From positions 1-64,000 of the forward strand of contig CAVTQK010000017.1 of assembly GCA_963736855.1 (NCBI GenBank): a stretch of DNA of 64,000 bases, written 5' to 3'. The stretch comes from an uncultured delta proteobacterium. Its GTDB lineage: Bacteria; Desulfobacterota; Desulfobacteria; Desulfobacterales; UBA2156. Shown here one piece after another: positions 47,620-54,846 of this stretch. Numbering within the stretch: the first letter of the stretch is position 1; the number at the start of each line of letters is the position of its first letter. Made by a program: the position numbers and the translations under genes. The notes below the pieces were generated by a model, which did no database searches, had not been told where the DNA came from, and was given only the letters and a program-made list of their open reading frames with translations.

Positions 47620-47697
47620 GGGGGCGTAGTTCAGTTTGGTTAGAACGCCGGCCTGTCACGCCGGAAGTCGAGGGTTCGAACCCCTTCGTCCCCGCCA
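47620..47697 (+). tRNA. tRNA-Asp(GTC)
   Basis: Complete cloverleaf with CCGGC-CTGTCAC-GCCGG, GTTCGAA and CCA. Confidence 0.96.
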
Positions 47698-48703: not shown

Positions 48704-48748
48704 CTGTCACGCCGGAAGTCGAGGGTTCGAACCCCTTCGTCCCCGCCA
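48704..48748 (+). repeat. 45-bp perfect direct repeat of the tRNA-Asp 3' half (att site)
   Basis: CTGTCACGCCGGAAGTCGAGGGTTCGAACCCCTTCGTCCCCGCCA is identical to 47653-47697. Confidence 0.95.
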
Positions 48749-48798
48749 CTGTTTTCATGGCCTGCCATCTGTAAAGATGTGCCAGGCCTTTTTTCTTT

Positions 48799-49052
48799 AT
48801 GGCATACTGCGTTTACATAATCCAAAGCCAGGTTGATGGAGGTTTCTATGTCGGCTCAACCCGTGACATTGATGACCGGCTTGAGCGTCACAACACAGGG
48901 AGGAGTCGTTACACCAGGGGAAGCGTGCATGGAAATTGGTTTATAAGGAAGACTGTCCGGATCGATCGAGTGCAATAAAACGTGAGTTAGAGATCAAAAA
49001 CAAAAAGAAACGAACGGTTATCGAAGCGCTGATTAGAACGTCCCGCCCCTAA
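48799..49052 (+). CDS. Small GIY-YIG nuclease (one-base frameshift near 48917-48921), absent from the ORF track
   Basis: Manual translation gives MAYCVYIIQSQVDGGFYVGSTRDIDDRLERHNTGRSRYTRG / KRAWKLVYKEDCPDRSSAIKRELEIKNKKKRTVIEALIRTSRP*. It has the VY...YVG, RL..H and A..RE..IK signatures. Confidence 0.88.
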
Positions 49053-49092
49053 GGCGGGAAGGTCGCGAGTTCGAACCCCTTCGTCCCCGCCA
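49033..49092 (+). pseudogene. tRNA-Asp-derived pseudo-tRNA B, overlapping the GIY-YIG 3' end
   Basis: TTAGAACG-TCCCGCC-CCTAA-GGCGGGA-AGGTCGCGA-GTTCGAACCCCTTCGTCCCCGCCA. The last 24 nt are identical to the tRNA-Asp 3' end. Confidence 0.85.
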
Positions 49093-49529
49093 AGTAAATT
49101 CAAGGGGTTACGGCAATCAACCGTAGCCCTTTCTTATTTGTTCCCAGCAGTATTCCCAGCAAGCAACCCGAATTTTAGCCTTTTTGACATTTCAGGCCCA
49201 GTATCGACATCACCCGGATTGAGAACCCAACAGATCAGGACTTTGCCCGGAAAGAGAAATATTCAAGAGCAATGAAATTATTTATATTGAGACTTTACTG
49301 CGAATTCCGCATTCAGCCGCATAAAAGGGGATAGATGGAAAGGTTGAACTGCATTTTCCATATTAACTTGTCTGTTATGAGCATATATGTAATATTTGAC
49401 ATGCTATAAGGACGATATCGAGTAATTTATTCCAGATATTGATAATGTTCGGCAAACATGCTTGTTTCGTATTGTTGGGTTTCAGTATAATGGAAGCAAG
49501 ATGAATGAACCAACATAGGAGAGGTCAAC

Positions 49530-49752
49530 ATGGCAATGACCGCACAAGAAATCTTCACAGAAACCGTACGAAACCTGCCACCCAGAGAACGGCTTCGTCT
49601 GGCAGCACTCATTTTACAGGATCTGGCACAATCAGATGTCGGCGGTTGTGAACCGAAGTGACACTTGGAGCGAACAAGACCAGAGAGATCTGACTGCCGT
49701 TTCATTGAAGTATGCGGCTGGTCTCTACCCAGAGGAGCAGGAACTTGTTTAA
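49530..49752 (+). pseudogene. Putative antitoxin (frameshifted)
   Basis: GAGG RBS, then MAMTAQEIFTETVRNLPPRERLRLAALILQDL / ...DTWSEQDQRDLTAVSLKYAAGLYPEEQELV*. It overlaps the start of the PemK-like gene. Confidence 0.6.
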
Positions 49753-50108
49753 TCCGGGAGATGTGGTGGCGATTGACTTTCCTGGTGTGACTGGCGTCAA
49801 ACGCCGGCCTGCTGTTGTAGTCTCCTCCGCAGTCTATCATGCCTCACGCCCCGATGTGGTTGTCTGCCTCATTACAAGCCAAACCATTCCATGTGGTCCT
49901 GACGGATTACATATTGCAGGATTGGGGTAAGGCAGGTTTACGAGTCCCATCGGTCTTTCGGTGTTTTTTCGCTACGCTCCCTCCCGCTACCCATCCTGTG
50001 CTCGTCGGCCATTTGTCAGACCGAGACTGGCGTGGAGTATGTGAGTGCATAAAGATCGCCCTGGCCCCCTTATCTACCTCAGAACGTTCGACAACATCAC
50101 CGTCGTAA
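49745..50108 (+). pseudogene. PemK/MazF-family toxin (frameshifted near 49885-49900)
   Basis: PGDVVAIDFPGVTGVKRRPAVVVS...DVVVCLITS, continuing in another frame as DYILQDWGKAGLRVPSVFR...VGHLSDRDW. Confidence 0.82.
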
Positions 50109-50411
50109 TCGACCATGTTCGCTGAAGTGGGATTGCCGAACGAATAAGGATAGATCGTGAGAGCGAAGCGAACCACGATCTTATCCTGTAGTTGGACAAG
50201 CCCGGCGGAATTCAGGGAGGTATCCTTATAAAGGAAAATATCTTTTGTTGAATGGGAGGTGGTTTTAACCCGAACTGGGAGCAAGACAATTTTCAGGGCA
50301 AGCGAGATCAATAAGCCTATCAGAGGGCTTATTAAACGGTCTTTATGTCATAGAATTTTTCTTAACCTCCTATGCTTATGTTTACTTCAGGTCATTGCCG
50401 ATTTAGACATG

Positions 50412-51466
50412 CTATCCTGGTGAGCGTATCGGCGGGCTGATACCCAGCACCCGCATAGGCGCATGACACAAGGGGCACATAAATACCGGTCTGGGACGTG
50501 AGCAGGCTTGAATCATGACCTGCAAAACCATTTGAACCAGTTTCAGCAGCTTTTTGGCATTGCCATGTAGAAAGCCATAGTCTCTGAGCCGACGAAAGCC
50601 CTTGGGCAAAACATGTTGCAGAACGAGCCAAAGGAAGTCTTCACCTTTGACGGTACGGTAGCGGGTTTTGCCGGTACGGCTTTCGACATATTTAAACGTG
50701 ACATTGCCATTTTGATTGGAGACGATATTGCTTTCACCGATGACGCCTCGGTATAGGTATCGCGATAAGTATTTCAAAGCGGAGAGACCTTTTCCGGCGC
50801 GAGTGCAGTCGACCACCCATTTTCTGGGCACTGAATCGGGCAAAGCGAGACCGGCTTGGTTCAAAGCCGCAAGAAAGCGGGCGCGAAACACCTTGGCCAG
50901 GGCGAATTCATTGAACAGGTACTTGCTTTTTTTCTTTTTCCATTGTTTTTTGGCCTTATCCACGCCGCCGCCCGGCACCACGACATGGATATGCGGGTGA
51001 TAATCCAGGCGACGGTTATGGGTATGCAGTACTGCGGTCATGCCGATATTGGCGCCGAGGTTTTTGGGATTCAGGCCGAAGTCCTTCAGCGTGCTGGAAG
51101 CGCACGCAAAAAGGAGATTATAAGCGAGGGTTTGGTGGTTCCATGCCAGGAATCTGAGCTCATAGGGAAACGTAAAGGTTGCCATGAAGTACTCAACCGG
51201 CAAAAGCTTGGCCTGTTGCCGGTCCAGCCAGAGTGAGGTTTCATGGTTCTGGCATTGTGGGCAGTTGCGATGCCCGCAGGAACGGGGACGCCATTCGGCA
51301 TGGCCGCAGTCAGTGCATTGAACGAGCAACTGGCCGGCGTCGGGTGTTCGGCATCTGTCGGATCGCATCGATGGCGTGCAGATGACCGGGTAAAAGCCGG
51401 GAGCCGTATTTGCTCCCGAAAGGCATCGTGATATTGATCAAGGATAGAGGCAAGTTGCATGATCAT
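50412..51466 (-). CDS. IS91-family (Y2, HUH) transposase, frameshifted near the N-terminus
   Basis: [18 protein letters not shown] zinc region, LHTH...HPHIHV (HUH) and YLSRY (Y2). Confidence 0.92.
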
Positions 51467-52367
51467 ATCCTCCTTAAATCGACGTGGAGGGTATTGATCA
51501 GCCCATTAATGGTATCAAATGCATTCTGTTTGGCGATGTCGGTTAAATGGGCGTAGCGAGCTGTGGTGGTGGGGCTGCTATGTCCGAGAATCGCCTGGAT
51601 ATGACGAAGGCTTAAGCCCTTTTCCAGCAGATGGGTTGCAAAGGCATGCCTCAGGGAGTGGATCGAGACTTTTTTTTAATGCCGCACTGTTCTACCACGG
51701 CTTTCATGGCGGCCTGGGTGCCGCCGCGATCCATATGGGTGGTGGCACTGCGGATGCGCTCGGGGGACCCGACGGCATTGGGGAATAACCAGCAGGGGTT
51801 GCGATGTTTGCGCCATAGAGTACGTAGTGCGTGACAGGTCAGATCCGGCAATGGGACGAAACGATCCTTGTGCCCCTTGCCGCGCCGGATATGAACCAGC
51901 TTGCGCTGACCGTCGATATCGCCCACTTGCAGGGACAGCGTCTCTGCGAGCCGCAAGCCCATGGAATAGGTTGCTATCAGGAAAACCCGGTAGCGAAGCT
52001 TACGTGTCGCACCGATTATTTGTTCAACTTCGGTGACGGTGAGAATGTCGGGCAGCGAACGCACTTTGGGGGCTTTGATGATATTAAGCCACTGCCAATC
52101 GTGTTTTAGGACATGTTTCCAGAAAAACTGCAGACCATTACGATCAATTTTAACGGTGCTCCAGGAGTGAGATTTCACCAGATCGGAAAAATATTGTTCC
52201 CGCTGTTTCAGGGTCAATTTGTCGGGGCAACAATCAAAATATTCACTGATTCGACGCACGGCGCGCGCATAGGCCTCAATGGTCTTTTGACTTTTACCCT
52301 GGAGTTTGAGAGAACGCAGATGACGTTGATAAAGTTCATTAAACCGGTTCGCTTCAGCTTTTTTCAT
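51463..52367 (-). CDS. Tyrosine recombinase coupled to the IS91 transposase; reading frame broken at A8G (51669-51677)
   Basis: YSMGLRLAE and GKGHKDR in the first frame. The -1 frame continues [16 protein letters not shown]...[12 protein letters not shown] to a TGA overlapping the transposase ATG. Confidence 0.9.
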
Positions 52368-52460
52368 GGTATACCTCCCTTTGTTTTAATGATGCCCGAA
52401 ATTGGGCAACACTGGGAGTTATACACGGTTATGAGGTTTTTTCCGCCGCGTAGCGGCTTC

Positions 52461-52564
52461 GTCCAACAAGCCAATGAAGCTGACAAACAACCACGCGGCA
52501 AGTTCGGTGGGATTATGAAAGTTGGTTCAGCGTGGTTGCTTGCAGCTTATCGGCGTCGTTATGT
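52461..52564 (+). other. Integron-type attC site 1
   Basis: GTCCAAC (RYYYAAC)...GTTATGT with an imperfect inverted repeat: GCCAAT-g-AAGCTG-a-CAAACAACCACGC pairs with GCGTGGTTGCTTG-CAGCTT-ATCGGC, leaving two unpaired bases. Confidence 0.85.
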
Positions 52565-52601: not shown

Positions 52602-53156
52602 ATGATGGAATGGTTAGCTAAGAACTGGTTGCCCATTCTGGCATTGCTCGTCGCCTTTGTGGGAGGGTGGCCTGGTATTTTGAAGATTGCCGAACATTTC
52701 CGACCTATCTCCCTGACCGGCTCCATTAAATTTTTTGCTCTTACTACGAGCGCCGACCCCCCCGAAGAAGGTATCCTTCTGGCACTTACGCTTCTCAACG
52801 AAGGCAATAAGAACCTTGTATGGAGAAAAATTGAGGGAACATTAGAGGCTGGAGGGAAAAAGGTTGCTCTCATCCCAAAGATGATTCCCAAAAGTCTATT
52901 ACTAAACGGAGACATATCACCCCAACCAGATTTTTTGAATCAGCAGACAATTCCGCCAGGAACTCCGGTTAATGCCTACCTTCTCCTGACTGGTAACCTT
53001 GGTTCTTTTAGTGCTCTCAATCCGATTGCGAGTGGCAACTTGGGTCTTCGATTCCAAACAGAATCAGGGAGGGACGCAGATGTAAAACTCTCGATTCAGA
53101 CGCATGCTCTCCAAAAAGGTGAGACCTACCCATCACACGGAATCGAATTCAAATAG
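52602..53156 (+). CDS. Hypothetical cassette protein with N-terminal membrane anchor
   Basis: 184-aa ORF with RBS lying between two attC sites. No family recognised. Confidence 0.75.
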   Translation: MMEWLAKNWLPILALLVAFVGGWPGILKIAEHFRPISLTGSIKFFALTTSADPPEEGILLALTLLNEGNKNLVWRKIEGTLEAGGKKVALIPKMIPKSLLLNGDISPQPDFLNQQTIPPGTPVNAYLLLTGNLGSFSALNPIASGNLGLRFQTESGRDADVKLSIQTHALQKGETYPSHGIEFK

Positions 53157-53291: not shown

Positions 53292-54846
53292 ATGAATCAT
53301 AACGGAAACAACATTGAATCCCGCCTGTGGGCGGCGGCGGATGAGCTGCGGGCCAATTCCAAGCTGAAGTCGTCGGAATACTCGGTCCCGGTGCTGGGGC
53401 TGGTGTTTCTGCGTTATGCCGACCACAAGTTCCAGGCCGCGGCAAAGGAACTGGTGGGCGCAGGCGGCGGCCGGCGCAAAATCGGCCCGGCGGATTATCA
53501 GGCCAAAGGCGTGCTCTACCTGCCCGACAGCGGCCCGTTTTTCGGCACTGATCCAGATGCCCGAGGGGGCCAACATCGGCGCGGCCATCAATGACGCCAT
53601 GCGGGCCATCGAGGCGGACAACCCCGATCTCAAGGACGTGCTGCCCAAGACCTACAACCGTTTTGAGAACGCCCTGCTCAAGGAATTGCTCAAGACCATG
53701 AATTCCGTGCCCATGGACATCGAGGGGGACGCCTTCGGCAAGATTTATGAATATTTCCTGGGCAACTTCGCACGCGCCGAAGGCCAGAAGGGCGGCGAGT
53801 TTTTCACACCCACCGCCATCGTTCAGCTCATCGTCGGCATCATCGAACCGTTTCATGGCCGCATCTTCGACCCGGCCTGCGGCTCCGGCGGCATGTTTGT
53901 GCAGAGCGCCCGGTTTGTGACCGAACACCAGAAGAACCCCGGCGCCGAGTTGAGCGTTTACGGTCAGGAGAAGGTGGCTGAAACCGTGCGCCTCGGCAAG
54001 ATGAACCTGGCCGTGCATGGCCTTGCAGGCGACATCCGCCAGGGCAACGCCTACTACGAAGACCTGCACCGCTCCGTGGGCAAGTTTGATTTTGTCATGG
54101 CCAATCCGCCCTTTAACGTGGACCGGGTGGACAAGGACCGACTCAAGGAAGACCCGCGCTTCCCCTTTGGCCTGCCCCGCACGGACAACGCCAACTACCT
54201 CTGGATTCAGATTTTTTACAGCGCCCTTTCCGACACCGGCCGATCCGGGTTTGTCATGGCCAATTCTGCTTCCGACGCGCGCGGTTCGGAACTGGACATC
54301 CGCCGGCAGCTTATCGAAGCCCGGGCCGTGGATGTGATGGTGGCGGTCGGGTCCAACTTTTTCTACACGGTAACACTGCCCTGCACCCTGTGGTTTTTCG
54401 ACCGGGGCAAGCGCAAGACCAAACGCGCCGACCAGGTGCTTTTCATTGACGCCCGTCATCTTTACCGCCAGATCGACCGCGCCCACCGGGACTGGACCCC
54501 GGCCCAGATCGAGTTTCTGGCCAACATCGCCCGGCTCTACCGGGGCGAGGCGCCGGAGAACCTGCACGAGAGCGCCGACCTGCTGGCCGAACATTTCGGC
54601 AAAAAGCCCAAGTACGCCGACGTGGCCGGCCTGTGCAAGGTGGCGACCATCTCCGAGATCGAAGCCCAGGGCTGGAGCCTCAACCCCGGCCGCTATGTGG
54701 GCGTGGCCGCCCGCGAAGAGGAGGACTTTGACTTCAAGGAACGGCTGGAGGAGCAGAACGAGGAACTGGAAACCCTCAATGCCGAGGCCCGGGAACTGGA
54801 AGCGCGGATTGCCGAGAATGTGGTCAAGTTGTTGGAGGGGGAGTGA
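53292..54846 (+). CDS. hsdM: Type I restriction-modification methyltransferase subunit (one frameshift near 53530)
   Basis: [29 protein letters not shown] and SLNPGRYV. Confidence 0.93.

Follow-up and report, generated by a model that had tools for sequence, protein, structure and literature searches.

A two-gene IS91-family element at a predicted attC site of a MazF-like gene cassette in an uncultured Desulfobacterales bacterium

The stretch of DNA analysed here, 64,000 nucleotides (nt) in length and referred to below as the window, comprises positions 1 to 64,000 of the forward strand of contig CAVTQK010000017.1 from an assembly of an uncultured delta proteobacterium of the order Desulfobacterales (GCA_963736855.1). 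Its minus strand carries a tyrosine recombinase gene followed by an IS91/Y2 transposase gene (Table 1), a two-gene unit that had been recognised correctly in an original prediction made from the sequence alone, where it was regarded as packaged in an integron-style cassette. We consider instead, with good confidence, that the unit is an IS91-family element, composed of a frameshifted Xer-like recombinase and an HUH/Y2 transposase, which was inserted in the attC of a MazF-like cassette, right after the AAC of its R'' box.

Table 1. Features of the element and of the attC site around it (window coordinates)
Feature	Position	Strand	Remarks
IS91-family element, recombinase and transposase, ~2.33 kb	50142..52467	minus	blastn against 76 related loci
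terIS-like end	52444..52467	minus	reads GTTGGACGAAGCCGC-tac-GCGGC; single subterminal palindrome beside the terminus
Xer/IntI-like tyrosine recombinase gene	51466..52367	minus	0 frame 52367-51651 (238 amino acids); -1 frame 51675-51466
Slippery heptamer A_AAA_AAG in A8 run	51669..51675	minus	predicted -1 frameshift site
IS91/Y2-HUH transposase gene	50412..51466	minus	two 1-nt insertions near the start; intact part 318 amino acids (50412-51368)
oriIS-like end	50142..50196	minus	imperfect hairpin GGATAAGATCGTG / CACGATCTATCC; internal heptamer GTCCAAC
R'' box GCCGAAC of the split attC	50135..50141	plus	matches GCCTAAC of the uninterrupted paralogue C19:45747
Remainder of the split attC	52468..52564	plus	spacer, L'', loop, L', R' (GTTATGT, 52558-52564)
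PemK/MazF-like toxin gene of the split cassette	49712..50108	plus	frames 49712-49930 and 49839-50108; PF02452 4.7e-08 (first piece)

The element and the attC that it interrupts

Related loci were obtained by a search of one genome per species, and in nearly every full copy homology to the window stopped at approximately 50136-50139 and 52467-52472. The bounds of the element are 50139/50142-52467, the bases AAC at 50139-50141 being common to element and target and leaving a 3-nt ambiguity at this end. The original prediction had proposed that copies be aligned to define the ends and to see whether each adjoins an attC; the ends are consistent over the related loci, but some flanks are not attC. 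About 20 of the related copies belong to one Desulfobacterales genome (labelled G001), and the source genome contains one full copy. A 279-nt piece with 86% identity to the recombinase gene of the element (L002, G000:C15:716635-716913) is likely the remnant of another copy. Several loci (L034, L038, L069, L075 and L044) match the window element only from the recombinase C-terminus to oriIS, their left part being different or too diverged for blastn.

On its transposase-sense strand the element starts with GTTGGACGAAGCCGC-tac-GCGGC and finishes with GTCCAAC-n-ACAGGATAAGATCGTG...CACGATCTATCCTTATTCGTT. The terIS-like end is kept in all aligned copies and fits the description of terIS in the IS91 family given in the available part of PMC13181058. 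The heptamer GTCCAAC at 52461-52467, previously taken for the left core of the attC, proved to be the terminal heptamer of the element, found in 33 of 42 copies regardless of the flank and replaced by a GTTCAAC-type heptamer in the rest. Complementary to it is the internal heptamer of oriIS, which reads GTTGGAC on the plus strand (50190-50196). TTAGAC at 50403, previously proposed as the other end of a cassette, is internal to the element, in a conserved stretch downstream of the transposase gene. The termini carry no inverted repeats, no target duplication is present, and the joints show only the 3-nt AAC/GTT ambiguity; likewise, GTT is common to both copies at the junction of the tandem copies in L057. 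The occurrence of copies in tandem and of nested fragments of the ends (L057, L053, L059) would be compatible with rolling-circle, single-strand-circle or one-ended transposition. Copies inserted into another copy, either within its oriIS hairpin or within its transposase gene, occur in the multi-copy genome (right flanks of L053 and L059, L057 at 5213, and L056).

The sequence to the left of the element closes with GCCGAAC, and that to the right opens with AAGCCAATG at 52468, while in the sole genomic paralogue (C19:45747-45852) the corresponding sequence is continuous, GCCTAAC-C-AAGCCAATG. The claim that the two-gene unit runs directly into an attC was right in that a strong hairpin adjoins the element, and wrong as to the site's R'' box, which lies 2.33 kb from the body of the site, beyond the other side of the insertion. 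The folding energies of the hairpin at 52468-52564, as single-stranded DNA, are -32.2 and -33.0 kcal/mol, with z about -4, and none of 200 shuffled sequences was as stable. The C19 paralogue has a second short attC at a distance of 0.7 kb and an IntI fragment at 2.6 kb; compared with it, the hairpin shows compensatory double changes in 4 of 23 stem pairs, with none broken. The split site is about 104 nt long (criterion 57-141 nt), and each core agrees with its consensus at 6 of 7 positions. In attC sites the strand with extra bases on the 5' arm is the top strand; here it is the plus strand whose 5' arm has the extra unpaired bases, and which is thus the attC top strand. This agrees both with the MazF-like gene, ending 27 nt before R'', and with a plus-strand open reading frame (ORF) at 52602-53156 that comes after R'. 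Judging from its sequence and predicted fold, the hairpin is very probably a genuine attC of the MazF-like cassette, split by the element directly after R''. An interrupted cassette of this kind was the very outcome that the original prediction had named as contrary to it. The element is antisense to the cassette, its own antisense strand running collinearly with the top strand of attC; either of the AAC triplets at the two joints may be the target's own.

No second attC-type AAC...GTT hairpin was found in the window between 47 and 57 kb, where the other matches are only tRNA-like repeats, and the attC is therefore solitary and outside any array there. The Rfam gathering scan of the window, with a database that has no attC model, returned only a TPP riboswitch and four tRNAs, and no intron match. 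The stated lack of an IntI gene in the window holds for the whole contig, where the only matches to the IntI model TIGR02249 belong to the recombinase of the element and are below the cut-off. Three intact IntI genes and one split are present elsewhere in the source genome. The element itself contains only Y2_Tnp and phage-integrase domains, with no DEDD transposase or reverse transcriptase/ribozyme.

The recombinase has PF13495 and PF00589 domains, and its HxxR...Y half sits in the -1 frame, entered after the A8 run; the stop of this frame at 51466 overlaps the transposase start, the genes being arranged head to tail. Among 42 copies found by blastn, 34, from assemblies of many kinds, need exactly a -1 shift at A_AAA_AAG with both frames open, when parsed with minima of 150 open codons upstream and 60 downstream, the latter including the catalytic LRH; three variants were wrongly parsed by the script. 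The heptamer lies in a run of A8 or A9 (A7 in three copies), and in none of the 42 is the 0 frame simply continuous with the catalytic frame. A_AAA_AAG is, by its conservation, a putative programmed -1 frameshift site, or one of transcriptional slippage, and as such a feature of the gene and not a sign of decay. No stimulatory structure was identified at the heptamer. A relative in Escherichia coli is annotated with a single recombinase ORF of 296 amino acids, so the device would be lineage-specific. The -1 frameshifting of IS3/IS911 and dnaX type likewise relies on this heptamer, read in the 0 frame, and yields a short and a full-length product; here, in contrast, the heptamer splits a tyrosine recombinase ahead of its HxxR...Y half.

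The best N-terminal match of the recombinase is TIGR02249, with 98 bits against a cut-off of 265. This model aligns only at its positions 7-180 and 257-305, whereas the XerD and XerA models span the junction; the unaligned stretch 181-256 presumably corresponds to an insert specific to IntI. The profile matches identify the protein as a probable Xer-like recombinase of the Xer/IntI branch and not an IntI, and the proposal that it might mobilise neighbouring cassettes without IntI finds no support.

The transposase matches PF04986 (8.1e-47) and PF14319 (1.9e-22), scores 366 bits with NF033538 (cut-off 125), and shows HPHIH and YLSRYLY motifs in its translation. In a six-frame reading its N-terminus is scattered over three frames, and comparison with the intact 350-amino-acid gene of L025 reveals two 1-nt insertions, both of them outside long homopolymers. 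Given these two indels and the lack of any other full copy in the genome, the window copy is probably inactive.

Although the element is predicted to carry no attC of its own, its joined ends appear to imitate one. The terminal heptamer of terIS and the heptamer located 50-59 nt inside oriIS are reverse complements, and the pair is GTTGGAC/GTCCAAC in 33 copies, GTTGAAC/GTTCAAC in five and has one mismatch in four. Complementarity is thus 7/7 in 38 of 42 copies, five of these by a double change. Between the two heptamers there is an imperfect hairpin, the stems of which covary in distant relatives, so that joining of the ends gives an R-box, a hairpin and a second R-box, similar to a folded attC. 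The tandem copies of L057 represent a natural instance of this junction. To this extent the idea of a cassette can be rescued in part.

Target sites of related copies

The attC sites were called by our own rules (cores, L boxes and energy). In G001 an exact empty site was found: the uninterrupted attC L107 continues as GCGGTT-GTT-AGCCCAGTTCATGC, which is the sequence past the far end of both L047 and L074, and the near flank of these two copies is the paralogous attC. Six of 40 rebuilt empty sites passed the strict attC definition, and in L036, L071 and L078 the R'' beyond oriIS and the R' beyond terIS are complementary at 7 of 7 positions. The first strict scan, in which the definition was similar but the energy limit slightly tighter, gave only 36 candidate places in the whole 3.9-Mb genome; it was over-strict and missed arrays. 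After removal of four near-duplicates and of all flanks below 148 nt in length, the hairpin rule was passed by 8 of 43 unique flanks and by 15 of 1500 control AAC sites (p = 7e-8), several of the latter looking like true attCs of the same arrays.

A target logo compiled from 41 events reads R-Y-C/A-notA-AAC before the joint and A-A-N5-T-N2-A after it. On the 5' side, R occurs in 31 events, Y in 35 and C/A in 40; AAC is immediately preceded by T in 24, C in 9, G in 8 and A in none. On the 3' side, the first two positions are A in 28 and 36, position +8 is T in 35 and position +11 is A in 33. The logo spans R'', a 5-nt spacer and L'', and the same spacing occurs in aadA1 and in independent attCs of the source genome. 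The A+2/T+8/A+11 signature was present in 32 of 52 unique flanks and in 255 of 10,526 controls (2.4%; p = 1e-37).

Position and orientation are shared as well. Contigs C3 and C31 of G001 carry copies 9-30 kb upstream of a plus-strand intI, and the transposase is also encoded on the plus strand; the element is therefore antisense to the cassettes, in the same orientation on both contigs. A relative with 49% identity, annotated merely as "site-specific integrase" and "IS91 family transposase", is situated in a class 1 integron on an E. coli IncC plasmid (NZ_LT985243; L113, 6247-17191), between aadA1 and qacEdelta1 and again antisense to the cassettes. Its oriIS end comes 8 nt past the aadA1 stop, after GTCTAAC, and the remainder of the aadA1 attC comes after its terIS end. 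With the empty site, the aadA1 site and the signature, the suggestion in the original prediction that the element targets attC is borne out: comparison of the copies strongly supports, at the family level, a putative preference for attC at a fixed position and in a fixed orientation.

Two further, distant IS91-family transposase genes (about 30% identity) lie beside an intact intI at G000:C24:200981-205849 (L006, L015, L016), one of them with an upstream recombinase in the same recombinase-transposase order and an oriIS-like hairpin at 203438-203494.

Mechanism of insertion and alternative explanations

Insertion by the HUH enzyme, through single-strand transposition of IS91 type with a preference for attC top-strand hairpins, appears moderately probable. 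The transposase would nick at oriIS, displace the antisense strand and circularise it at terIS, which ends in CAAC, and the circle would then be joined to single-stranded DNA on the 3' side of a YAAC tetranucleotide. The top strand of attC might be preferred because its RYYYAAC, short spacer, imperfect hairpin and GTTRRRY resemble the oriIS/terIS junction of the element. The recombinase may have an auxiliary role, such as binding of the hairpin, resolution or a contribution to fidelity.

Several observations weigh against insertion into attC by this enzyme. The joints do not identify the enzyme, and an IntI-like A/C exchange fits the junctions equally well. The conserved target is about 18 nt long (R'' and L''), compared with the 4 nt known for IS91, and resembles the "simple site" of a tyrosine recombinase. 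The signature is missing in 20 of 52 flanks, some of which are clearly not attC, while six of the 20 look attC-like by eye with shifted spacing. A test by energy only is weak (19 of 51 versus 81 of 600 at or below -15 kcal/mol); it was noisy and contained spurious end-motif matches, up to three mismatches being allowed. The attC in the window itself fails the strict test, with R''/R' complementarity at only 4 of 7 positions, and a single metagenome-assembled genome contributes about 20 of the events, so that the lineages are not independent. Finally, the two transposase indels may be assembly errors, since none of the public sequencing runs holds the stretch (best share 0.15, relatives only).

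The alternative is that the recombinase of the element, and not the HUH transposase, performs the insertion, which we regard as rather unlikely. The transposase would only make the single-stranded circle, and the recombinase would bind the folded GTCCAAC...hairpin...GTTGGAC junction and exchange one strand at the AA/C position of the attC left half-site, an integron-like reaction independent of IntI on the "wrong" (top) strand. The stem formed by the joined ends is similar to an R-box pair and keeps its pairing by compensatory change (33 and 5 of 42 copies), the AAC ambiguity permits a joint between A and C, and the target logo shows two inverted boxes with the joint at the border of arm and spacer, a long two-box target that this model fits better than the HUH model does. 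The recombinase is, moreover, conserved, tightly regulated by the -1 frameshift and translationally linked to the transposase. On the other hand, the heptamer pair is mismatched in 4 of 42 copies, some insertions are in sequence without a hairpin, and the protein does not align to positions 181-256 of the IntI model, the stretch taken above for the IntI-specific insert. To our knowledge, no recombinase gene has been reported for ISCR28 of the sul4 modules. It is likewise described, in the available part of PMC12772301, with attC sites at its end, and IS91-family elements without a recombinase already show insertion guided by a tetranucleotide, according to the accessible text of PMC13181058.

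The element might also be a hybrid transposon, a reading that we hold only tentatively: the HUH enzyme would make a single-stranded circle with attC-mimicking ends, and the frameshift-gated Xer-like recombinase would join the mimic to the left half-site of the top-strand attC, without IntI. Such an element would be a dedicated parasite of cassette arrays, and, as a complete hybrid attC remains after insertion, IntI could move the cassette and the element as one unit.

The originally predicted model, in which the two genes together with the attC at 52461-52564 form a mobile integron cassette that has TTAGAC at 50403 as its other boundary, with either IntI or the encoded recombinase as the mobilising enzyme, is now very improbable. 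It is true that the element adjoins a probable attC and that GTCCAAC at its terminus conforms to RYYYAAC; the hybrid attC retains all boxes after the insertion, and IntI might excise a composite of the cassette gene and the element. ISShvi3 is presumably a member of the ISfinder subgroup of IS91 elements with an upstream gene of phage-integrase type. A similar remark on such a composite is made for it in the available part of PMC9229058. Against the cassette, however, stand the internal position of 50403, the true R'' past the opposite end of the element, flanking sequences that differ among copies (52 unique flanks) and lack attC at some, the antisense orientation relative to cassettes, and empty-site paralogues that retain their attC. 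The packaging model is contradicted by the ends of the element and was rejected.

A chance adjacency, i.e. an ordinary IS91-type insertion at a random YAAC within a hairpin, would suit a family that targets merely 4 nt (PMC13181058, as far as available) and the high frequency of AAC, but it has next to no probability and was rejected at the family level by the signature (p = 1e-37), since position and orientation recur at dozens of distinct sites in Desulfobacterota, Gammaproteobacteria and an E. coli plasmid.

Comparison with known systems and significance

Known members of the IS91 family (IS91, IS801, IS1294, IS1294b) share with the present element an HUH/Y2 transposase above the NCBIfam cut-off with a zinc-binding N-terminal domain, the lack of inverted repeats and target duplication, the placement of the terIS and oriIS palindromes, and a tetranucleotide next to oriIS that resembles the terIS terminus (CAAC). 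The available part of PMC13181058 describes the family as having a terIS upstream with one subterminal palindrome and an oriIS downstream with a palindrome, no inverted repeats or duplication, a target tetranucleotide that abuts oriIS, and transfer of the bottom strand. The present element differs in a target that spans R'' and L'' of attC in one orientation, in joined ends that mimic attC, and in an extra gene, a tyrosine recombinase in need of a -1 frameshift, at the place where IS91 has orf121.

With integron cassettes, attC and IntI, the element has in common the junction motifs (..AAC/.. and ..GTT/RRRY), the attC-like folded junction and a recombinase of the Xer/IntI branch. It differs in having no portable attC of its own, in its insertion at R'' instead of R' and on the top strand, and in a recombinase far under the IntI cut-off. 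As for other elements homing to attC, we know of two kinds, the IS1111-attC group of the IS110 family and group IIC-attC introns. Their insertion points lie elsewhere in attC. The likeness to both consists in being mobile elements that home to attC (PMC9229058, in its available part) and, for the introns, in lying opposite to cassettes, whereas the enzymes are different, namely a DEDD transposase with bridge RNA or a reverse transcriptase with a ribozyme.

The surroundings of the element include other split genes, namely the MazF-like gene, a small ORF upstream of it and hsdM. The small ORF, a putative antitoxin gene (49530-49752), and the PemK/MazF-like gene are each spread over two frames, and the region is either decaying or badly assembled. 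The hsdM-like methylase gene, named from its translation, occupies two overlapping frames (53292-53594 and 53416-54846). Downstream of a tRNA-Asp gene (47620-47697) its 3' half is repeated twice, at 48704-48763 and 49048-49107 (88% over 60 nt, then a shorter piece), which suggests that successive small islands integrated at this tRNA. Past these repeats come the attC cassette, the insertion sequence and then a type I restriction-modification system.

In the full-text literature, no description of an attC targeting rule for IS91-type elements was found, save passing mentions of ISShvi3 (PMC9229058) and ISCR28 (PMC12772301) in the available parts of these papers; ISfinder, TnPedia and subscription journals were outside the search. 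A third kind of attC-homing element, with a rolling-circle transposase and a tyrosine recombinase, ends that mimic the target and an exact rule of insertion (after R'', backwards), would be new. It would offer a testable role for the unexplained recombinase of this IS91 subgroup, as well as a new approach to the recognition of single-stranded attC hairpins by proteins distinct from IntI. As one relative is located in a class 1 integron of clinical type, the insertion rule would also help to annotate odd "cassettes" in resistance arrays.

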